A DNA stretch of 43,909 nucleotides from a virus (Duplodnaviria > Heunggongvirae > Uroviricota > Caudoviricetes), in IMG/VR virus record IMGVR_UViG_2778261176_000017, one strand, 5' to 3'. Within the stretch, counting starts at the first letter, position 1; every line of letters begins with the position of its first letter. Below the pieces are notes generated by a model. It did not search any database. It saw only the letters and a list, made by a program, of their open reading frames with translations, and was not told the DNA's origin. Positions 2,795 through 26,999 of this stretch are shown here, piece by piece. The position numbers were made by a program, and so were the translations under genes.

Positions 2795-5387
2795 TTGCAT
2801 ATTCCTTAGCCCAGCGGGGCAGTGATAACGTCTTAATAGCTGGCCATTCATCGGTATTGAGGCAGTCAGCCAGGGTTCGCAGATTGCGGTGATATTCCAG
2901 CTGACCTGCCTGTTTTGCTTCTTCGCCCATCATGAAAATTTCAACCGGATAACGTCCGCATTCAATAGTTGTGCTGGCAACCAGAAAAACGAAAGTTGGC
3001 TGCACTCCAAACTGTGCTTCATAACCGTCACTGTAGAATGCATCCTGAACGTGATAGCGGTAGTCGTAATAAGCGGTTTTGAATCGTTGAATATCCGCCG
3101 TAGTTTTCACGTCCATGATCCAGTGAAATTCAGGGATAATTTTGTCCGGACGGCACCGACACAAAATTCCTGTTTCAGGATCTTCCCAGTAAATTGATGA
3201 TTCAGCGTGTCCGGCGCTTTCAACAAGCCATTGCCCCAACGGCAAAGCCATAACGCTTTGATACATGAGTTCAATTTTCCGGCCTTCTTCCGCAGTGATA
3301 ACCGTTTTTCCTGTGCTTGCGCATTCCATCAGAAACGCTTTCTCTTCTTCTTTTCCGGCGTTTGTACGGCGGTTAAATTCAGGTGCTACGATAAAGCGGT
3401 TACTGAATTCTTCCGGTTCAAGTACCCGGCAGTGGAAAGCGGTTCCTAAATCGAGCGTTTTTGTCTTTGTAGTGTCCACGGGGGCATTTTTACGCCACAA
3501 ATACAGTGCCGGAGTATCAGCAATGTCATCGAGCTGAGACTTACTGACACCGGGACCCGCGTGGTAATTCTCATTCGAAATTCCGTAATAAATACCTGGC
3601 TCTATGTCTTCTACGATTACGGGATCTGCGACTTCGCCAGTTTCATCACTGCAATCGCGATGCGGATCGCTGCCAGCATTCTCATTGTGCGGATGTTCAG
3701 CGCCTTCCATTTCCTCCGGATCTTTTTCTTTAGCTTCAATCTGATTCTCTTCACCGAATGTTTCCTGGTATGTTGCGTCGCCCATCACCGCACCACAGTC
3801 AGGGCAGCTATCCCCGCCAGTCTGACCGCAGGCATTGCAGACTTTTTCCGGTTCCTGTTGCACTACTGGCTCAGGTTGATTCATATCCGGGCTGGTTTTT
3901 TCCGTTTCTGGCTGGTTCTGGTACACACAATCGCGAGTCTGGATCCCCTTTACCCATTTCGGATCGTTCGGGTCGCTAATTCCGTCAACAAATTCACCAC
4001 GTGATGCAGCAAGCAATTTATCGGCATCGACAGGATCTTTTGATGGAATGTTTTTCCGGGCTTCATGGAGTTCTGCCCGCAGTTCCTGATATTTCGCATC
4101 AACAGAATTTACCTGTGACTGAGCATCCAGCGGCTGCGTGTCCTGATGATGTTCAGTTGCGTCCGGTTCCATTGTTTCAGCCTCTCCCTGTTCAACTGCC
4201 GTTGTTCCAGATGGTTGCGGTTTTTCTTCATCATCCTGTTTTCCTTCTTCTGTTACTCGCTGCGGCATCGGGGCAGAGGAGCGACCGCAGGCAATATCCA
4301 CGATTTCCGGATCAGGGTTGGCATGATCGGTTTCAGTCAGTACTTTGTTCAGATATTCAGTGACGTGCGCGGGGATGACCTCGATCCCAATTGGTGCTTC
4401 TTTTACGGACGCAACCACGATGGCGCGGGAATAATCCAACCCGCCAGGCATGGTGATGAATTTGTCGCGGAAAACAGAAAAGGGCGGTTTATTTTCAGCG
4501 ATAATTTCCTCAATGCGTTTAGCGTGTGCCGGATGAAGGTTATAGATGTCCAGATCCATTGAACGGGCCAGTACGCCAGTGGCTACGTCGCGCGCCAGTG
4601 ACGTCAGATCGTGTACGAAACCTTCGCCGCGATCGGTGAGGTTTCCGCCGCCAGCATTAGCACCGGAAGCCGTGCGAGTGATGTGTGAAACACGATTACC
4701 CTTCATCCACTCTTTTGTCAGCAGTCCTCGATCGGTGTAGTCAGCGTTCAGGTATGCTTCGAAAAAAGCAGTTATCAGTCCCAGGTTTGAATTACCAGGA
4801 TTAGGGAAAACTTTGTCAGTGTCACGAACCAGTTTGTGGAGTTCGCGAATTTCCAGCGGGTCGAGCAGGCTGGTTTTGTGGGAAACAGCCAGGGCAGTAA
4901 CAGCCGGTAGTTCTTCAGCCCGAGCAATGTGTAATGCCTGGAGTCCGTCGCGTGAAACGTGCGTTACCGGTTTTTCGCTGCCGTGTTGAGCAAGCCAACG
5001 AATGGGCAGTTCCTGGCCAGAAATTGGGAGTAGCATATTCTCCTCAATCTCAGTCATGTCTTCGCCGTTGACGTTGGTATTGCCTTGATAGTGAGCGTTG
5101 TCTGGTGCTGCTCCCGGTTTTAGTTCCCATGTCATGGAGTCTTTGCTGAGTTGATAGCGTTCACTCCAGGTAAAATCGATCTCACCTTCAGCGGGCAGGT
5201 CATTAACGACAGGAAAATTCGTGGCAACAGCTTTAAAATAGCTGCTCAGTTTTTTACCTGACTTAACGATCAGGTAGTCCAGAGTGGCACAGGTCGATTC
5301 AAAATCGTTGCTTGCCCACAGGACGACGTCAGGTTCACCGGATGATTTTTTCGCTTTCCGTAACAGGAAGAGTGGTTTTGTGCTCAT
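2787..5387 (-). CDS. recE: Exodeoxyribonuclease VIII, RecE (866 aa, full length)
   Basis: Uninterrupted 866-aa ORF with acidic linker and C-terminal nuclease region; length and sequence match recalled Rac RecE. Confidence 0.9.
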
Positions 5388-12182: not shown

Positions 12183-13223
12183 ATGAAAGCAATTGATCTT
12201 TTTTGTGGCGCTGGTGGTTTGACAGTTGGTCTAAAAATGGCTGGCTTTGATGTCATATCAGCAATCGAAAAAGAAGCTATTGTATCTGAAACCTATAGAA
12301 TCAACCATCCGGATGTTAACTTAATAAATGGGGATATAAAAAATATATCACCAGATGAATTAATGAAACAATTAAAAATTCAGCAAGGTGAACTGGATTT
12401 GTTGGCAGGTTGTCCACCATGTCAAGGATTTTCTTCGTTAAGAACAAAAAATAAAACAGTAGCTGTCTTTGATGAGAGAAATGAACTTATTTTTAATTTT
12501 TTAGATTTTGTTAAAGTCTTTTTTCCAAAAGTTGTAATGGTTGAAAATGTACCAGCTTTGGCATTTGACGAACGAATAAACATGTTTACTTCGGAGCTTA
12601 AGAAATTGGGTTATCATATCGATGATAATTCAGTTTTAATTGAAGATGCTAGTAAATTTGGTGTGCCACAAAGACGTAAGCGCATGGTACTACTTGCTTC
12701 GCGATACGGAGAGCTTACTCGTGCTCAAAAAAATAGTAATTTAATAACTGTGCGCGATGCAATAGGCCATTTGGCTCGACCTGAAAATAGCAATGATCCG
12801 CTGCACAATATATTAGAAAGAAGAACTGAGAAGGTTAAAAAAATTATAAGTCTTATTCCTAAGGATGGGGGAAGCCGCTCTCAACTTCCTTACGAGTATT
12901 GGCTGCCATGTCATAAACGATATCCAAATGGTTTTCGCGATGTTTACGGTCGTATGAGGTGGGATGATGTAGCTCCAACTATTACGAGTGGATGTACTAA
13001 TCCTTCAAAAGGTCGTTTTTTACATCCTGAACAAGATAGAGCAATAACTCTTCGAGAGGCTGCATTATTACAAACTTTTCCGAGTGATTACTATTTTCCT
13101 ATTCAATTTGGTAAAGACAAGGCTGCTTTGATGATAGGGAATGCATTGCCCCCTGAATTCATTAAGCGTCATGCTGAACTTATCAAAGAACATATAACTA
13201 AAAACGAGGCGGATTATGGATAA
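12183..13223 (+). CDS. DNA (cytosine-5)-methyltransferase (346 aa)
   Basis: Conserved m5C-MTase motifs read directly: DLFCGAGG (SAM binding), PPCQGFS (catalytic Cys), ENV, QRRKR, GNALP. Visibly AT-rich coding sequence. Confidence 0.9.
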   Translation: MKAIDLFCGAGGLTVGLKMAGFDVISAIEKEAIVSETYRINHPDVNLINGDIKNISPDELMKQLKIQQGELDLLAGCPPCQGFSSLRTKNKTVAVFDERNELIFNFLDFVKVFFPKVVMVENVPALAFDERINMFTSELKKLGYHIDDNSVLIEDASKFGVPQRRKRMVLLASRYGELTRAQKNSNLITVRDAIGHLARPENSNDPLHNILERRTEKVKKIISLIPKDGGSRSQLPYEYWLPCHKRYPNGFRDVYGRMRWDDVAPTITSGCTNPSKGRFLHPEQDRAITLREAALLQTFPSDYYFPIQFGKDKAALMIGNALPPEFIKRHAELIKEHITKNEADYG

Positions 13224-15198
13224 TAAACTATTTCTAAATTTTCATGGTAGGATAATTGATCATTTAGGTATTCAAATGTATCAAAGTCCAACAGCAGCAA
13301 TAGCTGAAATGGTTTCTAATGCTTGGGACGCGGATGCAACCGAAGTTAATATTACACTACCCACGCATGAAAATAGAACTATTGTTATAAAAGACAATGG
13401 TATTGGAATGACATTTGAAGAATGTCAAAAGAAATTTCTTACGGTTGGTTTTGATAAAAGGAAAGATAATCCTGTAGCGAAGTCGAAATTATTCAATCGA
13501 GACTTAATGGGAAGAAAAGGTATCGGAAAGTTTGCTGGTTTTGGTATTGCTGAGATTATAGAAATTTGTACTACTAGCCAAGAAACAGGTGAAAAAACTA
13601 GTTTTACTTTGGATATAAATAAGATTAGATCGTCAGATGACTACGTTAAAACTGAAAGCATGGCTATTGATGTGACCTTCCGCACAGGCCCTTCAGAATT
13701 AGAAAAAGAAAATCATGGAACAACAGTAACACTTAAGTCATTGAAAATAAACAGATTATTAAATGAGTCTTCTTTTGCTACATCTATGGCGAGAAGGTTT
13801 GCGATCAATTCTGGCGGCGATGAATTTTTAGTTCGTATTAATAATACCCCCATGCCAGTCGAAAATTTTCTTGCCACTGCAGAATATAGTTTTCCAAAAG
13901 ATTATACTGTAGATGAAAAACCTGATTCTCTTACGGAAATTGACAGTTTGGGGTATGGAAAAGAAATCGTTGATGGTTATGAGATAAAATGGAGAGTGTT
14001 TTTCTTAAAAGAAACAATCAAGGATGATGAGTTGCAAGGTATCTCGATTTACGCTCACAAAAAATTAGCACAAAGGCCGTTTATGTTTAACTTGACTGGA
14101 GGGTTGCCAAGTCAAAATGGTCCTGAATATATGACAGGGGCTGTAATTGCTGATTATTTGGATGAGTTTAATGATGATGTGATTTCTACTGAACGACAAA
14201 GATTGAATTGGAGTAGTCACCACCTTGCTAAATTAGAAGAGTGGGGACAGAAACGTGTTCGCGAATTATTAAAAATCTGGAAAGATCGGCGGGCAGATGA
14301 AAAAACCAAACTGATTGAAAGTAAAATTGATGATTTCAGAAGTAGGCTAGATAAACTAGGTGTAGAAAAAAAAACGGTTATAATGGCTTTGAAACGAATT
14401 GCATCAATCCAACAAATCGGTGCAGAGCAATTTAGGCATATAGGCAACTCTATCCTCACTGCATGGGAGGGAGGGCGTCTAAAAGAGCTTATAAGAAGCG
14501 TTGCTTCTGTTCCTGATATGGATGAAACGAAATTGCTTGAGATATTGATCGAAGCAAATACAATTCAGGCTTTACACACAGCAGAATCAGTTAAAGCTAA
14601 GCTTGATACTATAAGTGGTCTTGAGACTAGAATACGCACTAAAGAATTAGAAAATGCTGTTCGAGACTATATTGCGAAGAATCCTTGGCTGATAGCTCCA
14701 AAATGGGAGACTTATGCTATTGAGAAAAATGTCCAGCATATCGCTAGAGAAGCAGCAAAAGAATCAGACATTGAACACGATCCAAGCTTTAAAGGAAGGG
14801 TTGACTTAGTTCTTTCAAGTGGTGAACATTTGCTTGTACTTGAATTCATGAGGCCAGGGCTGAAAATAGATAAAGATCACATCAATCGCTTTGAGGAGTA
14901 TGTTAATACTTTCAGAGTTTATTTAGACTCTGCAACAGGAAGTCCATTCAAGCGAGTTTCCGGTTATCTAGTTGCTGATGATTTTTTAAAGAGAAATGCA
15001 ACGTTAAATATGAAACTGAAAACATTGAGAGAACAAGAAATGTATACATTAACTTGGGATGACCTTCTGTCTGATGCAAAGCGTCAATGGCGTGAGTTTT
15101 TAGAACACTTGTCTTCTCGTGCTCCCGAAGATCAGCGTATGAAAGAATTGTTATCTACAACTCCTGAGAAAGTGATAGATACCTCTGAAATTACTTAA
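13216..15198 (+). CDS. GHKL (Bergerat-fold) ATPase-domain protein, 660 aa, predicted ATP-dependent restriction/defence component
   Basis: N-terminal motifs EMVSNAWDA (N-box), DNGIGM (G1), GRKGIGKFAGFG (G2). ATG 13216 overlaps the MTase stop by 8 nt; GAGG RBS. C-terminal segment RVDLVLSSGEHLLVLEF is a possible, unverified nuclease core. Confidence 0.75.
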   Translation: MDNKLFLNFHGRIIDHLGIQMYQSPTAAIAEMVSNAWDADATEVNITLPTHENRTIVIKDNGIGMTFEECQKKFLTVGFDKRKDNPVAKSKLFNRDLMGRKGIGKFAGFGIAEIIEICTTSQETGEKTSFTLDINKIRSSDDYVKTESMAIDVTFRTGPSELEKENHGTTVTLKSLKINRLLNESSFATSMARRFAINSGGDEFLVRINNTPMPVENFLATAEYSFPKDYTVDEKPDSLTEIDSLGYGKEIVDGYEIKWRVFFLKETIKDDELQGISIYAHKKLAQRPFMFNLTGGLPSQNGPEYMTGAVIADYLDEFNDDVISTERQRLNWSSHHLAKLEEWGQKRVRELLKIWKDRRADEKTKLIESKIDDFRSRLDKLGVEKKTVIMALKRIASIQQIGAEQFRHIGNSILTAWEGGRLKELIRSVASVPDMDETKLLEILIEANTIQALHTAESVKAKLDTISGLETRIRTKELENAVRDYIAKNPWLIAPKWETYAIEKNVQHIAREAAKESDIEHDPSFKGRVDLVLSSGEHLLVLEFMRPGLKIDKDHINRFEEYVNTFRVYLDSATGSPFKRVSGYLVADDFLKRNATLNMKLKTLREQEMYTLTWDDLLSDAKRQWREFLEHLSSRAPEDQRMKELLSTTPEKVIDTSEIT

Positions 15199-20983: not shown

Positions 20984-21120
20984 AATCTTAACTACAATAT
21001 GATTCATTTTGATGATTGTTTCATAAGGAACAGTGAAGTAAGATCTAAGAGGAGTTAAATTTTATACAGTATAATCATAATATTGCAGCAAGGTGGTTAT
21101 AATTGAAAGAATATTTAGAT

Positions 21121-22578
21121 ATGAATACATCTCATGTAAGAGTTGTTACTCATATGTGTGGGTTCCTGGTTTGGCTCTATAGTCTTTCAATGTTGCCACC
21201 AATGGTTGTAGCATTGTTTTATAAAGAAAAAAGCCTGTTCGTTTTCTTTATAACTTTCGTTATATTTTTTTGCATTGGTGGCGGAGCGTGGTATACAACT
21301 AAGAAATCTGGCATTCAATTACGTACCCGTGATGGATTTATTATAATTGTAATGTTTTGGATTTTGTTTTCTGTTATTAGTGCATTCCCTTTATGGATTG
21401 ACTCAGAACTTAATTTAACGTTCATTGATGCTCTGTTTGAAGGGGTTTCTGGAATAACAACAACAGGAGCAACTGTAATTGATGATGTTAGTTCATTACC
21501 TCGGGCATATTTGTACTATCGGTCACAGTTAAATTTTATAGGTGGTTTAGGAGTTATTGTTCTGGCGGTTGCTGTATTGCCATTATTGGGTATTGGTGGT
21601 GCAAAGCTTTATCAGTCAGAAATGCCGGGGCCATTTAAGGATGACAAACTCACTCCCCGCCTGGCCGATACGTCACGGACACTGTGGATAACTTATTCTT
21701 TATTAGGTATTGCTTGTATTGTCTGTTATAGACTTGCAGGAATGCCTTTGTTTGATGCTATTTGTCACGGGATTTCCACAGTTTCGCTTGGTGGTTTCTC
21801 AACTCATAGCGAGAGTATCGGATATTTTAATAACTATTTGGTTGAGCTGGTGGCTGGTTCTTTTTCCCTGCTATCGGCTTTCAACTTCACTCTTTGGTAT
21901 ATTGTTATTAGCAGGAAAACGATAAAACCTTTAATCAGAGATATTGAACTTCGTTTCTTTCTGTTAATAGCCTTAGGGGTGATCATTGTTACCTCTTTCC
22001 AGGTCTGGCATATAGGTATGTATGACTTGCATGGAAGTTTTATTCATTCGTTTTTTCTTGCCAGCTCCATGCTCACTGATAATGGTTTAGCTACGCAGGA
22101 TTATGCAAGCTGGCCCACGCACACGATAGTGTTTTTGCTGTTGTCAAGTTTCTTTGGGGGATGTATAGGTTCAACTTGTGGTGGAATTAAGTCACTTCGA
22201 TTTCTTATACTTTTCAAACAAAGCAAACACGAGATAAATCAGCTTTCTCATCCCAGAGCGTTGTTGAGTGTAAATGTAGGAGGGAAGATAGTTACAGATC
22301 GTGTAATGAGGTCTGTATGGAGTTTCTTTTTTCTTTATACTCTCTTCACGGTGTTTTTTATACTGGTGTTAAATGGTATGGGATATGATTTTCTTACATC
22401 ATTTGCAACAGTGGCTGCATGTATTAATAATATGGGATTAGGTTTTGGGGCTACTGCATCGTCATTCGGAGTGCTTAATGACATTGCAAAATATTTAATG
22501 TGCATAGCTATGATTCTTGGTCGCCTTGAAATTTATCCTGTTATTATATTGTTTTCAGGTTTTTTTTGGCGCTCCTAA
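21121..22578 (+). CDS. trkG: Potassium uptake protein TrkG (485 aa, polytopic membrane protein)
   Basis: ATG at 21121; AT-rich, hydrophobic ORF matching recalled Rac-encoded TrkG. Confidence 0.9.
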   Translation: MNTSHVRVVTHMCGFLVWLYSLSMLPPMVVALFYKEKSLFVFFITFVIFFCIGGGAWYTTKKSGIQLRTRDGFIIIVMFWILFSVISAFPLWIDSELNLTFIDALFEGVSGITTTGATVIDDVSSLPRAYLYYRSQLNFIGGLGVIVLAVAVLPLLGIGGAKLYQSEMPGPFKDDKLTPRLADTSRTLWITYSLLGIACIVCYRLAGMPLFDAICHGISTVSLGGFSTHSESIGYFNNYLVELVAGSFSLLSAFNFTLWYIVISRKTIKPLIRDIELRFFLLIALGVIIVTSFQVWHIGMYDLHGSFIHSFFLASSMLTDNGLATQDYASWPTHTIVFLLLSSFFGGCIGSTCGGIKSLRFLILFKQSKHEINQLSHPRALLSVNVGGKIVTDRVMRSVWSFFFLYTLFTVFFILVLNGMGYDFLTSFATVAACINNMGLGFGATASSFGVLNDIAKYLMCIAMILGRLEIYPVIILFSGFFWRS

Positions 22579-22715: not shown

Positions 22716-23507
22716 ATGAGCGAGAAATTAAAGATAGTCTATCGCCCATTACAAGAATTGTCACCGTATGCGCACAACGCCAGGACGCACAGCCCTGAGC
22801 AGGTGGCACAACTGGTAGAAAGTATTAAGCAATTCGGCTGGACTAATCCGGTGCTGATTGACGAAAAGGGCGAAATTATTGCGGGTCACGGTCGTGTTAT
22901 GGCGGCTGAAATGCTCAAAATGGATTCTGTTCCGGTCATTGTTCTGTCTGGCCTGACGGATGAGCAGAAAAAGGCGTACCGCCTCGCAGATAATCGCCTG
23001 CCGATGAATGCTGGCTGGGATGAAGATCTGTTGCGGATGGAGCTGTCGGACCTAATCAATGCTGATTTTGATGTCTCCCTGACAGGCTTCATCCCGACAG
23101 AAATTGATGAACTGTTGACGGATGTTTTGCCCGGTACAGGAAATGAGGAGGAGCCGTATACGACGAAAATTGATACGCCTGTTTATGAGCCGTCGGACGG
23201 TAAACCGGATATCAGTGAACTGTACGACGATACGAAAACTCAGGAGCTGATCAGCCGGATACGTTCGGCGTCCCTTGATCCTGATATTGAGAAATTCCTC
23301 CTGTGTGCGGCAGAACGTCACACAGTGTTTAATTTCAGCAGAATTGCGGACTATTACGCTCATGCCCCCGCTGAAATTCAGTGCCTTTTCGAGGAGTCGG
23401 CGCTGGTGATCATTGATTATCAGCAGGCTATTGAAAATGGATTTGTCCGAATGACGCAGCGCATGGTGGAGATCATGCATGGTGGTGAGGAGGAGGAATA
23501 TGCGTGA
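22716..23507 (+). CDS. ParB-like (ParB/Srx fold) nuclease-domain protein (263 aa)
   Basis: N-terminal ParB N-domain signature (VYRPLQELSPYAHNARTH ... GHGR) with an acidic C-terminus. Lies upstream of the terminase genes. Confidence 0.7.
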   Translation: MSEKLKIVYRPLQELSPYAHNARTHSPEQVAQLVESIKQFGWTNPVLIDEKGEIIAGHGRVMAAEMLKMDSVPVIVLSGLTDEQKKAYRLADNRLPMNAGWDEDLLRMELSDLINADFDVSLTGFIPTEIDELLTDVLPGTGNEEEPYTTKIDTPVYEPSDGKPDISELYDDTKTQELISRIRSASLDPDIEKFLLCAAERHTVFNFSRIADYYAHAPAEIQCLFEESALVIIDYQQAIENGFVRMTQRMVEIMHGGEEEEYA

Positions 23508-24432
23508 TGATTTTTGCGCCTTTATTCTGACTCACGGGCGACCGGACAAAGTTCTGACTTACCGGACGTTGCGTCGTGCTGGCTATACCGGGAAAATTTT
23601 TATCGTTGTTGATGATGAAGATAAGACACGGCATCAGTACATGGCTGAATTTGGTGAACAGGTGCTGGTATTTTCCAAAGCCGATATTGCCAGTCGTTTT
23701 GACGAAGCCGATAATTTTGGTGACCGCCGCTCAATTTTTTACGCCCGTAATGCCTGTTTCGACCTGGCAAAACTGGTCGGGTGTAAATACTTCATTCAGC
23801 TCGATGATGATTATCACGAGTTCCAGTTTCGGGTGGATCGCAACTATGACCAGGCCTATTTCCCGATAAGGAAACTGGATGCGATCCTTTCTGAAATGCT
23901 GGCGTATTACGAATCAATACCCGCGCTTTCCATCGCTATGTCGCAGGGCGGGGATTTTCTTGGTGACAATGGCGGCCATGCTTCGTGGGTGAAACGCAAG
24001 GCAATGAACAGCTTTATCTGTTCGGTTGATCGACCGTTCTCATTCATGGGGCGCATTAACGAGGATGTGAATACGTACACGAATCTCGGTCGCTGTGGTG
24101 AATTGTTTATGACGATCGGTGCTGTCCAGTTAGGGCAGAAACAGACGCAGAAAAACAGCGGCGGAATGACCGAGCTGTATCTGGACTCCGGAACCTACGT
24201 TAAAAGTTTTTACTCCGTCATGTATTCGCCGTCGTGCGTAAAAATCTCACTGATGGGTGCCAGCCATAAACGCATTCACCATCAGGTCACCTGGAACAAC
24301 GCTGCAGTAAAAATCCTTCACGAAAAATACAGGAAGAAGACACCCTGCATATCAATGGGGGTGACAAATGATTCCGTATTCGAAAGTCGAGTCTCTGGCA
24401 GCGTGCCGGATGACTGCACAACAAATCGCTGA
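23500..24432 (+). CDS. Hypothetical protein (310 aa) with GT-A-like glycosyltransferase signature
   Basis: ATG 23500 overlaps the ParB-like stop (ATGCGTGATGA), with AGGAGG just upstream. N-terminal FILTHGRPD strand and IQLDDDY (DXD-like) about 90 residues later. The track ORF starts at 23479. Confidence 0.5.
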   Translation: MRDDFCAFILTHGRPDKVLTYRTLRRAGYTGKIFIVVDDEDKTRHQYMAEFGEQVLVFSKADIASRFDEADNFGDRRSIFYARNACFDLAKLVGCKYFIQLDDDYHEFQFRVDRNYDQAYFPIRKLDAILSEMLAYYESIPALSIAMSQGGDFLGDNGGHASWVKRKAMNSFICSVDRPFSFMGRINEDVNTYTNLGRCGELFMTIGAVQLGQKQTQKNSGGMTELYLDSGTYVKSFYSVMYSPSCVKISLMGASHKRIHHQVTWNNAAVKILHEKYRKKTPCISMGVTNDSVFESRVSGSVPDDCTTNR

Positions 24433-24619
24433 CGTTCTGGATGTTGATCTGAACCGACTGAAAGAAAATCGGGAAGCAATGACAGATTTTTATGCGGCCA
24501 TCCGTAAGGGCAGAGCGAAAGGTGAAGCCGAGTTACGAGCGGCATTGTTTAAGCTTGCCAGAAAAGGGGATGCCTTTGCTCTGCGCGAACTACTCAGGGT
24601 GGATAAAAATCAGGACTAA
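24368..24619 (+). CDS. Hypothetical small protein (83 aa), possible HTH
   Basis: GGGGG RBS before ATG 24368; overlaps the end of the previous gene; ends 3 nt before terS. Confidence 0.4.
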   Translation: MIPYSKVESLAACRMTAQQIADVLDVDLNRLKENREAMTDFYAAIRKGRAKGEAELRAALFKLARKGDAFALRELLRVDKNQD

Positions 24620-24622
24620 CTG

Positions 24623-25717
24623 ATGAGCAGACCGGACTGGGGGGCGTTGCAGCAGGAGTATATTGCTGAATACACCCGCTCCGGTATATCTCCGGTGGCA
24701 TGGTGTGAAGCAAGGGGACTGAACTACGCAACAGCCCGTCGTTACATCAAAAAAACTCCGAAAAATGCGCAGAAAGAAATGCGCAAAACTGCGCAAAAAA
24801 GTGCGCGAAAAAAAACTGCGCAGACTGCGCAAAGGCAGAACGGAAAATCTCAGGAAAAAAAGCCAGTATTCGATGCGGGCCTGAATGAGGGCGACGCGGA
24901 GGAATTTTCGTTCTGTCCCGATGAATTCGGCATTTCTGACCAGCAGGCTAAGTTTGCGATGCTTGTTGCTCAGGGTAAAAAGCCGACAGAGGCGTACCGA
25001 CTAGCCGGTTATGAGGGGCAAGGTGCGACAGCTAACAGCAACGCCAGTCGTATGCTTAGAAATGCCAGGGTTTATCGTGCTATCAGCTACTTCCGCAATC
25101 AGTACCAGAAACGCTATACCGCAGACCTGGATTTACTGGTGAGCCAGTTGATGGCCATTGTCCAGGCCGACCCCAATCAGTTGGCACAATTTCGCCGTGT
25201 TAACTGCCGTTATTGCTGGGGCGAGAATCATCTCTACCAGTGGCGTGATATTGCAGAATTCGATAAGGCTGCGGCACAGGCCTCCAGAGATGGTAAACCC
25301 GAGCCGGAATATGGAGGCCTCGGCTTTGTTGATAACGCCATACCCAATCCGGATTGCCCGAAGTGCTGCGGTGAGGGAACGGGACAGCTTTATATGGCTG
25401 ATACCACACTGCTTGATGGGGATGCGCGGCAATTATATGCAGGGTCAAAGCTCGGAAAATACGGTGTTGAGATCCTGCTGGAGGATAAGGCTGCCGCCCG
25501 GCGTGAATTGTTGCGTTTGCTTTCTGCTGGCGGGGCATTATGTGCAGATAAGCGGCTACAGGAACTGGAAATTGAACGGCGCAGAATAGAAAACCAGAAG
25601 CTGCGCAAAGAGATCGAAACGGTGGAGGATAATGAACATCCCCAGCCTGTGGCGATCAATATTAATGTGGTTGATGCCAGATTAAGGAGTGATGAAGATG
25701 ATCTCTCCGACGCTTAA
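24623..25717 (+). CDS. Terminase small subunit (364 aa) with C-terminal Cys-rich extension
   Basis: Central region AYRLAGYEG...ANSNASRMLRNARV is typical of phage small terminases. Basic N-terminal linker; CxxC...CxxCC further downstream. Immediately precedes the large terminase. Confidence 0.7.
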   Translation: MSRPDWGALQQEYIAEYTRSGISPVAWCEARGLNYATARRYIKKTPKNAQKEMRKTAQKSARKKTAQTAQRQNGKSQEKKPVFDAGLNEGDAEEFSFCPDEFGISDQQAKFAMLVAQGKKPTEAYRLAGYEGQGATANSNASRMLRNARVYRAISYFRNQYQKRYTADLDLLVSQLMAIVQADPNQLAQFRRVNCRYCWGENHLYQWRDIAEFDKAAAQASRDGKPEPEYGGLGFVDNAIPNPDCPKCCGEGTGQLYMADTTLLDGDARQLYAGSKLGKYGVEILLEDKAAARRELLRLLSAGGALCADKRLQELEIERRRIENQKLRKEIETVEDNEHPQPVAININVVDARLRSDEDDLSDA

Positions 25718-26999
25718 TGTGCCTCAGGCGCGATTTCTTTCAATGCCCCATAAATTTAAAGCCTATATTGCTGGTTTTGGCTCGGGCAAAACATGGGTTG
25801 GGTGTGGCGGCATATGCAAGGGGATTTGGGAGCATCCAGGTATAAATCAGGGATATTTTGCGCCAACGTATCCCCAAATTCGCGATATTTTTTACCCTAC
25901 AGTTGAAGAAGTTGCTGCTGACTGGGGATTGAACGTAAAAATTAATGAGGGAAATAAAGAGGTTCACTTTTATTACGGACGCCAGTATCGGGGAACCACT
26001 ATCTGCAGATCGATGGAGAAGCCACAAACGATCGTCGGTTTCAAAATTGGTAATGCGCTGGTGGATGAACTGGACATTTTGCCGAAGGAAAAAGCCAGAA
26101 CGGCGTGGCGCAAGATAATTGCGCGTATGCGTTATAAGATTGATGGACTTCGCAACGGTATTGACGTTACAACCACGCCGGAAGGATTCAAATTTGTCTA
26201 CGAGCAGTTTGTTAAAGCCGTGCGTGAAAAAACAGAGCTGGCCTCACTGTATGGTCTGGTGCAGGCATCTACTTTCGATAATGAAAAGAACCTGCCAGCA
26301 GATTACATTCCTTCACTTCTTGAATCATACCCTCCAGAGCTGATTAAAGCCTATCTTCTAGGACGGTTTACTAACCTGACAAGTGGTACTGTTTACCATC
26401 AGTTTTACCGGAAACTGAATAATTGCGAAGAAGTGGAGCAGCCAGGGGAGCCGATTTATATTGGGATGGATTTTAACGTTGGAAAGATGGCGGGAATCGT
26501 CCATGTGCTGCGTTTGGGGCTTCCATGTGCGGTAACTGAAATCATCAATGCCTACGATACGCCGGATATGATCCGCCTCATTAAAGAACGCTTCTGGCTG
26601 TATGACGGGCATGATTACCAGAAAGTGAGGGAGATTTATATTTATCCAGATGCTTCCGGAGATTCCAGAAAATCAAGTAACGCAAGTACGACGGATATAG
26701 CCCAGCTTAAGCAGGCAGGTTTTAACGTTGTGGTGAACAGCTCGAACCCGCCAGTAAAAGATCGCGTTAACTCAATGAATGCAATGTTCTGCAATGCCAA
26801 TGGTGAGCGTCGCTATAAAGTTAATGTGAAGCGTTGTCCGGTATATGCCGAATCTCTGGAGCAACAGGTCTGGGATGATAAGGGGGAGCCTGATAAAAAA
26901 TCTGGCAATGATCACCCGAATGATGCCGGAGGTTATTTCATCGTTAAGCAATTCCCTATTGTCAAACCGACCGGAAGAGTCACATCACTTCGGATTTAA
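25698..26999 (+). CDS. Terminase large subunit (433 aa from ATG 25698; alternative ATG 25692)
   Basis: Walker A AGFGSGKTW near the N-terminus. AGGAG (25685..25689) sits 8 nt before ATG 25698. Start overlaps the terS end. Confidence 0.85.
   Translation: MISPTLNVPQARFLSMPHKFKAYIAGFGSGKTWVGCGGICKGIWEHPGINQGYFAPTYPQIRDIFYPTVEEVAADWGLNVKINEGNKEVHFYYGRQYRGTTICRSMEKPQTIVGFKIGNALVDELDILPKEKARTAWRKIIARMRYKIDGLRNGIDVTTTPEGFKFVYEQFVKAVREKTELASLYGLVQASTFDNEKNLPADYIPSLLESYPPELIKAYLLGRFTNLTSGTVYHQFYRKLNNCEEVEQPGEPIYIGMDFNVGKMAGIVHVLRLGLPCAVTEIINAYDTPDMIRLIKERFWLYDGHDYQKVREIYIYPDASGDSRKSSNASTTDIAQLKQAGFNVVVNSSNPPVKDRVNSMNAMFCNANGERRYKVNVKRCPVYAESLEQQVWDDKGEPDKKSGNDHPNDAGGYFIVKQFPIVKPTGRVTSLRI

Follow-up and report, generated by a model that had tools for sequence, protein, structure and literature searches.

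The stretch analysed here, referred to below as the window, is the whole 43,909-nt sequence of the IMG/VR virus record IMGVR_UViG_2778261176_000017 (class Caudoviricetes). The element is a Rac-like lambdoid prophage with an integrase, RecT/exonuclease VIII, a Q-like antiterminator, lysis genes, and a TrkG-like gene. Its small terminase gene, terS, contains a cluster of six hexamers of the type TGCGCA, which we consider likely, with some reserve, to be the recognition array of a packaging (pac) site built in the manner of phage P1. The features of the locus are as follows (aa, amino acids; pLDDT, predicted local distance difference test score; codon phase, position of the first base of the hexamer in its codon).

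24623 to 25717, + strand: small terminase gene terS (364 aa; Terminase_2 body at aa 122–316)
24623 to 24757, + strand: coding region of the N-terminal domain of the small terminase TerS (aa 1–45), the proposed reader of the hexamers; last helix ...GLNYATARRYIKK
24758 to 24904, + strand: coding region of the low-confidence basic linker (aa 46–94; pLDDT below 50), containing the hexamer array
24749 to 24861, + strand: whole candidate recognition region, six hexamers among A-tracts, 48% A
24766 to 24771, unstranded: hexamer 1, TGCGCA, codon phase 3 (aaT GCG CAg, N-A-Q)
24780 to 24785, unstranded: hexamer 2, TGCGCA, codon phase 2 (aTG CGC Aaa, M-R-K), differing in phase from the other five
24790 to 24795, unstranded: hexamer 3, TGCGCA, phase 3 (T-A-Q)
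24802 to 24807, + strand: hexamer 4, TGCGCG, a one-base variant, phase 3 (S-A-R)
24817 to 24822, unstranded: hexamer 5, TGCGCA, phase 3 (T-A-Q)
24826 to 24831, unstranded: hexamer 6, TGCGCA, phase 3 (T-A-Q)
25689 to 26999, + strand: gene of the large terminase TerL (Terminase_6N and Terminase_6C), the nuclease/ATPase proposed to cut near the site

TerS matched the Pfam family Terminase_2 (PF03592) with 35.9 bits, the gathering cut-off being 26.1, and PHROG 51, 'terminase small subunit', with 1.9e-75. Its N-terminal domain was modelled by AlphaFold2 with pLDDT values of 73–86 and helices at residues 6–20, 24–30, and 35–38; neither a Pfam scan of the N-terminal 80 aa nor a PDB sequence search with a profile of the domain gave a significant match. 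The low model confidence of residues 46–94 suggests that the linker peptide is probably under little structural constraint. An initial sequence-only reading of this DNA, which had placed the array in a basic linker of the small terminase, described the region fairly, since it is rich in K, Q, A, and T around the hexamers.

The six TGCGCR motifs that this reading had listed at 24766–24831 in the 5′ part of terS were recovered by a motif scan, all read on the + strand, with start-to-start distances of 14, 10, 12, 15, and 9 bp; they occupy codons 48–70. The + strand of the window carries 32 TGCGCR in total, and the number on both strands (58 observed versus 67.7 expected) reveals no window-wide enrichment. 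At most three TGCGCR fell within 66 bp in 500 dinucleotide shuffles of the window, and no more than three were obtained in 5000 shuffles of the local A-rich 121 bp alone, while a Poisson scan gave a probability of about 5e-7 for at least six in any one 66-bp stretch of the window. Clustering of this degree far exceeds what chance would produce. The repeat unit itself had to be redefined: comparison with relatives indicates that the word proper is the palindrome TGCGCA rather than TGCGCR, and TGCGCG at 24802, which differs by one base, is a variant at a position where most close relatives have TGCGCA. Between and around the hexamers lie the A-tracts A7 (24749), A5 (24761), A4 (24785), A6 (24795), A8 (24808), A4 (24844), and A7 (24855), which may pre-bend the DNA.

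Homologous loci were fetched with the first 45 residues of TerS as the query, taking one genome per species, which yielded 62 loci, mostly from Enterobacterales. In the 200 nt following the N-terminal domain of 45 intact homologous genes, one per species, 224 hexamers were found, with spacings of 7–16 bp. By codon phase, 168 of them are in phase 3, encoding X-A-Q, 43 in phase 2, encoding [LVM]-R-X, and 13 in phase 1, encoding C-A-X. The alanine of linker A-Q pairs is encoded by GCG in 159 of 179 cases, compared with 27% of the remaining alanine codons of the same genes, and the codon preceding this alanine ends in T in 166 of the 179. A subset of 24 genes could be aligned without gaps; two of the five motif positions served to choose it, while the other three did not. 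In these genes, the T before GCGCA is fixed although the codon to which it belongs varies (GCT/ACT/TCT/CCT at one position and AGT/ACT/ATT/AAT at another). The frequency of the major allele was 0.97 in motif columns, compared with 0.79 between the motifs and 0.71 at four-fold sites in the domain next to them. As judged from these comparisons, selection acts on the hexamers as DNA rather than on the peptide, because all three codon phases are used and silent sites remain fixed while the encoded residues change.

The location of the array is likewise conserved. In a profile of 45 loci of 3.1 kb each, counted in 50-nt bins, 190 TGCGCA start at +100 to +199 of the gene and 53 at +300 to +399, while most other bins hold 0–2, and the array occupies the same place in homologues from Enterobacterales, Aeromonas, and Vibrio. 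The second, smaller group consists of two or three TGCGCA located 150–200 bp downstream of the first in many relatives with two types of TerS body, typically at +347, +359, and +385 of terS (for example, at 3290–3345 of locus L001, and in many of the loci L088–L139), the first group lying at +137 to +195. The search was also carried out in the reverse direction, by scanning IMG/VR solely for the DNA pattern of three TGCGCA separated by gaps of 1–10. Among 80 loci read, the N-terminal domain was encoded within 450 nt in 59, and the remainder were mostly perfect tandem repeats or chance matches in G+C-rich DNA. A few irregular TGCGCA arrays were also noticed in intergenic regions of unrelated IMG/VR contigs with no N-terminal domain nearby (L239, 10434–10520; L243; L265; L282); these may be operators for other DNA-binding proteins.

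The sequence of the hexamer co-varies with the last helix of the N-terminal domain. Where this helix reads A-R-R-Y/H, at least three TGCGCA were found in 54 of 57 loci from Enterobacterales, Aeromonas, and Vibrio, and at least two TGCGAA in none; where it reads A-K-R-Y, at least two TGCGAA were found in 11 of 11 loci and at least three TGCGCA in none. The TGCGAA of the latter class is frequently extended to TGCGAAT or to the 12-mer TGCGAATTCGCA. The A-R-R-Y/TGCGCA pair is present in Aeromonas phage phiARM81mr (seven copies of the hexamer) and 48 of 49 related IMG/VR contigs, in Vibrio phage douglas 12A4 (five copies), and in E. coli phage GER2 (five copies), while Pasteurella phage Pmp11, with an A-K-R-Y helix, carries nine TGCGAA in phases 1 and 3. 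In Shiga toxin (Stx) phages such as VT2-Sakai and 933W, the domain is 72% identical to that of GER2 but contains A-R-T-R, and four CGATCAT(G/A)A repeats are found. Peptide proxies for 125 representatives of clusters at 50% identity gave the same split between helix and word, and the classes cross both hosts and fused TerS bodies. In this set of sequences, the hexamer word co-varies with the TerS N-terminal domain and has a fixed place after it.

The repeats of the Stx phages directly follow the homologous domain (at about 1335–1385 of locus L147 for VT2-Sakai, NC_000902, and likewise in 933W and in phi419, locus L146). They encode the peptide IDHEIDHKTDHEIDHD and each contains a Dam GATC site; the CGATCAT array is a candidate methylation-sensitive pac array, much like the TGATCA hexamers of P1.

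In one relative the arrangement has decayed. The terS of Rac-SA53 (KU052037, locus L002, 2912–3070) is annotated as a gpO-terS deletion fusion, in which the N-terminal domain and hexamer 1 are lost. Point mutations are present in three of the five remaining hexamers, which at 89% overall identity corresponds only to the expectation of neutral drift; this decay contrasts with the preservation of the hexamers in genes whose N-terminal domains are about 60–75% identical. What looked like a mosaic breakpoint in the array of E. coli CUWW10 (NZ_CP182145, locus L329, 1301–2158) was rejected as such: it is an IS1 insertion that coincides precisely with the beginning of the hexamer cluster and cuts terS off after codon 48.

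The closest known counterpart of this arrangement is the pac site of phage P1. It is 161 bp long, lies inside pacA, and consists of seven TGATCA/G hexamers, the synonymous recoding of which reduced packaging about 9-fold (PMC10028697). The P1 record annotates pacA, a site for the integration host factor (IHF), and the pac cleavage points; four TGATCA begin at codon 65 of pacA, TGATCG, TGATCA, and TGATCA follow about 130 bp downstream, and the cuts and the IHF site lie between the two groups. Both systems have a short palindromic hexamer that recurs at irregular intervals of roughly one turn of the helix, a single copy having G in place of the final A, and in both the array is located in the 5′ part of terS right after a helical N-terminal domain of about 40 residues that ends in ...N-T-A-R-R-Y-(I/L) and is followed by a basic stretch (...NLNPNTARRYL in PacA). 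The second downstream group resembles the 4 + 3 layout of P1, a likeness confined to relatives of the window gene. A comparison of the family profile with PacA aa 3–40 by hhalign gave a probability of 88.5% and an E-value of 2.7e-6 over 38 of 45 columns, and BLASTP of the window TerS against PacA gave an E-value of 0.007. Homology of the domain to the PacA N-terminus is thus probable rather than established, in view of the borderline profile scores. The differences are also clear: the word is TGCGCA and not TGATCA/G, the six hexamers of the window form one group instead of two flanking the cut, the remainder of TerS is of the Terminase_2 type, and TerL has no similarity to P1 PacB (best BLASTP E-value 0.84).

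Other known packaging sites are less similar. The sequence-only reading had named P22 and SPP1 as precedents, but P1, with its TGATCA/G array in pacA after a similar N-terminal domain, fits best. In SPP1 and SF6, pac comprises boxes a and b of pacL and box c of pacR, bound by G1P, a small terminase of the Terminase_2 family; the likeness to the window extends to the Pfam family of the TerS body, the position of pac in or at terS, the repeated boxes, and A-tract bending. However, the SPP1 box sequences are unrelated to the hexamers and are read by the helix-turn-helix of the Terminase_2 domain, whereas in the window it is the additional N-terminal domain that co-varies with the repeats. The P22 pac site shares its location within the small terminase gene (gene 3) of a headful lambdoid phage; however, it is a single, long, unique asymmetric site of 22 bp rather than an array of short repeats, and gp3 lacks such an N-terminal domain. 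In lambda cosB, the boxes R1–R3 are bound by the winged-helix N-terminal domain of gpNu1, together with IHF. Here too an oligomeric TerS uses an N-terminal DNA-binding domain to recognise several boxes, but these are 16 bp long and are located beside cosN in non-coding DNA, the phage is of the cos type, and an IHF site is present.

In its core, the initial proposal of a repeated-box pac site in terS is supported by the DNA-level conservation, the fixed place, and the co-variation with the N-terminal domain. We infer the binding of TerS, the cut, and the headful mode as follows. TerS would carry an added 45-residue helical, PacA-like DNA-binding domain, joined by a flexible basic linker to its Terminase_2 body, and the DNA encoding this linker would hold the binding sites of the domain. 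Several N-terminal domains of one TerS oligomer could bind neighbouring hexamers, which are 9–15 bp apart, or about one helical turn, on DNA that the intervening A-tracts may have pre-bent. The bound TerS would mark phage concatemers and recruit TerL, TerL would make the first cut nearby, and packaging would then go on, most likely by the headful rule. The window would thus harbour a hexamer-array pac site of the P1 style with a new word and a layout simpler than that of P1.

Several observations weigh against this reading. The HMMER profile built from 108 members ranked PacA as the top non-self hit among 626 open reading frame (ORF) segments, but with a non-significant E-value of 0.15. The hexamers of the window contain no GATC (Dam) site, which implies the absence of a Dam-methylation switch, and no match to the IHF consensus WATCAANNNNTTR with at most one mismatch was found on either strand at 24500–25200. 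The second hexamer group is absent from the window and its subfamily (loci L084–L087), in which the next TGCGCR lies about 590 bp further on. Near-identical E. coli prophages retain from four to six intact hexamers, so either some copies are dispensable or some of these prophages are decaying. The co-variation counts were made on loci that are not phylogenetically independent. A literature search returned no binding, cleavage, or virion-end data for phages with this type of TerS. Finally, the array DNA of the window folds as RNA with −29.5 kcal/mol (z = −3.3), pairing hexamers 1 with 2, 3 with 4, and 5 with 6.

Among the other explanations, a TerS-bound autoregulatory operator that throttles transcription of the terminase or late operon and has no role in the start of packaging would account equally well for the pairing of domain and hexamer and for the location of the site inside the gene of its likely binder. 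We nevertheless regard it as unlikely: all occurrences of the N-terminal domain are at the start of small terminases, the sole characterised array of such design, that of P1, is a pac site with mapped cuts, and the phage would pay a high price for a roadblock in its late operon ahead of the genes for TerL, portal, and head. An operator and a packaging role are compatible and may coexist.

The array could also serve a phage of the cos type, in which TerS binds the repeats and TerL makes staggered nicks at a fixed cos site, generating identical virion ends. Repeated TerS boxes in or next to terS are the rule in cos phages as well, as exemplified by R1–R3 of lambda cosB, and the sequence leaves the rule of termination unfixed. 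On the other hand, the Mu-F-like head protein and DUF4055 portal encoded downstream of TerL are typical, as a weak indication, of headful modules, and P1, whose pac site is the closest analogue, packages by the headful rule. The nearest characterised relatives of TerL, with 40–52% identity (43–45% for the Jersey-like ones), belong to Jersey-like, Kagunavirus, and Dhillonvirus siphophages, some of which have been reported to be circularly permuted (PMC9409062); a PDB sequence search with TerL gave no match. By analogy with these systems, headful packaging by this prophage is likely, and fixed ends appear quite improbable.

At the RNA level, adjacent palindromic UGCGCA could pair into three hairpins of the terS mRNA that tune its translation or stability. 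The fold of the window described above would agree with this, as would a Klebsiella homologue (z = −4.1). However, such folding is not family-wide, since z is 0.0 for the Pasteurella gene with its nine non-palindromic TGCGAA, −0.6 for P1, and −1.8 for the TGCGAAT class. Moreover, many genes have an odd number of copies, and the word shows strict identity rather than compensatory change and varies with the protein helix. This makes a primary function in RNA very unlikely.

We see just as little prospect for another reader of the word, such as a host protein, the product of an 83-aa ORF upstream of terS, or a restriction or modification enzyme. TGCGCA is a type II restriction/modification site, the prophage encodes a C-5 cytosine methylase (12183–13223), and unrelated viral contigs do have irregular TGCGCA arrays in a small number of intergenic regions. 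Nevertheless, the word tracks the class of the TerS N-terminal domain across hosts and phage types lacking such neighbours. The best PDB relatives of the methylase are DNMT1 and HaeIII, HhaI (the GCGC enzyme) being much weaker, so there is no sign that it targets GCGC or TGCGCA.

A low-complexity peptide repeat (K-T-A-Q-K) that arose by slippage within a disordered linker and generated the DNA word only incidentally is scarcely credible and was rejected in its pure form: the linker is indeed repetitive and of low confidence, and five of the six window copies share one phase and encode X-A-Q/R, but the codon-phase and silent-site counts contradict it, the spacing is irregular with no tandem arrangement, the same word accompanies quite different linker peptides in Vibrio and Aeromonas phages, and 56–75% domain identity excludes that the homologues are recent copies of one another.

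Returning to the P1-style pac site, its distribution suggests a broader interpretation. The N-terminal domain is at the N-terminus in all 199 representatives of clusters at 50% identity; together with the repeats it is fused to varied TerS bodies (ORFs of 196–365 aa; PHROGs 51, 370, 2606, and 1711) and is also paired with different types of TerL. Since the array is overprinted on the linker DNA, domain and site would travel together as one cassette. One could hypothesise that they form a portable 'packaging address', swapped among unrelated terminase bodies and phage types, with a readable specificity code; this extension is tentative, and our confidence in it falls slightly short of even. Such a cassette would range over lambdoid Enterobacterales prophages, Stx, Aeromonas, Vibrio, and Pasteurella phages, and probably P1. 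If this interpretation holds, Arg at the second position of A-R-R-Y would correspond to C at hexamer position 5, Lys to A, and A-R-T-R to GATCAT. In the literature consulted, which included few subscription journals, no paper linked TGCGCA to a terminase, and none described, for any phage other than P1, PacA-like N-terminal domains accompanied by matching repeats.

Only a handful of phages have a known pac site, and experiments are usually needed to map one. The present results suggest a rule that uses sequence only: locate a PacA-like N-terminal domain, then look after it for the repeated hexamer. With its 199 clusters the family is a large one, and it is medically relevant, as it includes Klebsiella prophages and Shiga-toxin phages. 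Knowledge of the pac word would help to predict which chromosomal or plasmid regions are transduced via pseudo-pac sites, and would aid the design of packageable phagemids, as with P1 pac (PMC10028697). The natural co-variation offers a test set for the sequence specificity of small terminases, and the locus appears to illustrate clearly how a protein-binding array can be superimposed on the very DNA that encodes the flexible linker of its binder. Should the cassette code be true, it would allow sequence-based reading, and also re-programming, of the pac sites in hundreds of prophages that are as yet uncharacterised.

The 5′ region of terS was found in 882 of 5426 complete E. coli genomes, and deposited prophage records carry terminase genes about 96–97% identical to those of the window. 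No virion-end data were found for Yersinia vB_YenM phages, Klebsiella prophages, or the vB_EcoS-R records; the last stem from phages located in genomes of clinical E. coli isolates and carry no virion-end information. A search of a 5.8-billion-protein collection with the N-terminal domain profile returned mostly truncated entries of 44–79 aa. Many of these database 'small terminase' fragments stop in the linker region, where A7 and A8 runs are present in the DNA; such fragments may represent pseudogenes prone to frameshifts, homopolymer sequencing errors, or genuine truncated N-domain proteins.

Several neighbouring genes deserve mention. The 83-aa ORF (24368–24619) is located directly upstream of terS and matches only positions 145–218 of 319 in PHROG 309, 'terminase small subunit'. 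It might represent the vestige of a different TerS, or a short DNA-binding protein with an accessory role. The C-5 cytosine methylase gene (PF00145, 346 aa) lies in the early region, and its stop overlaps the start of a gene for a 660-aa GHKL/HATPase_c_3 protein extending to 15198; together (12183–15198), the two are candidates for a restriction-modification or defence system. The region 22716–24432, which lies shortly before the terminase genes, encodes a protein of 263 aa with a ParB_N domain, as well as a TET-associated glycosyltransferase (PF20691) matching PHROG 842, 'beta-glucosyl-HMC-alpha-glucosyltransferase'. No TET/JBP gene was found among the larger window ORFs scanned; the glycosyltransferase and the C5-methylase together hint at a DNA hypermodification pathway. 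A gene for a TrkG-like potassium transporter, typical of Rac-like prophages, is located at 21103–22578 between the lysis and packaging genes and is annotated as TrkG in the near-identical phage record SPF_0923.

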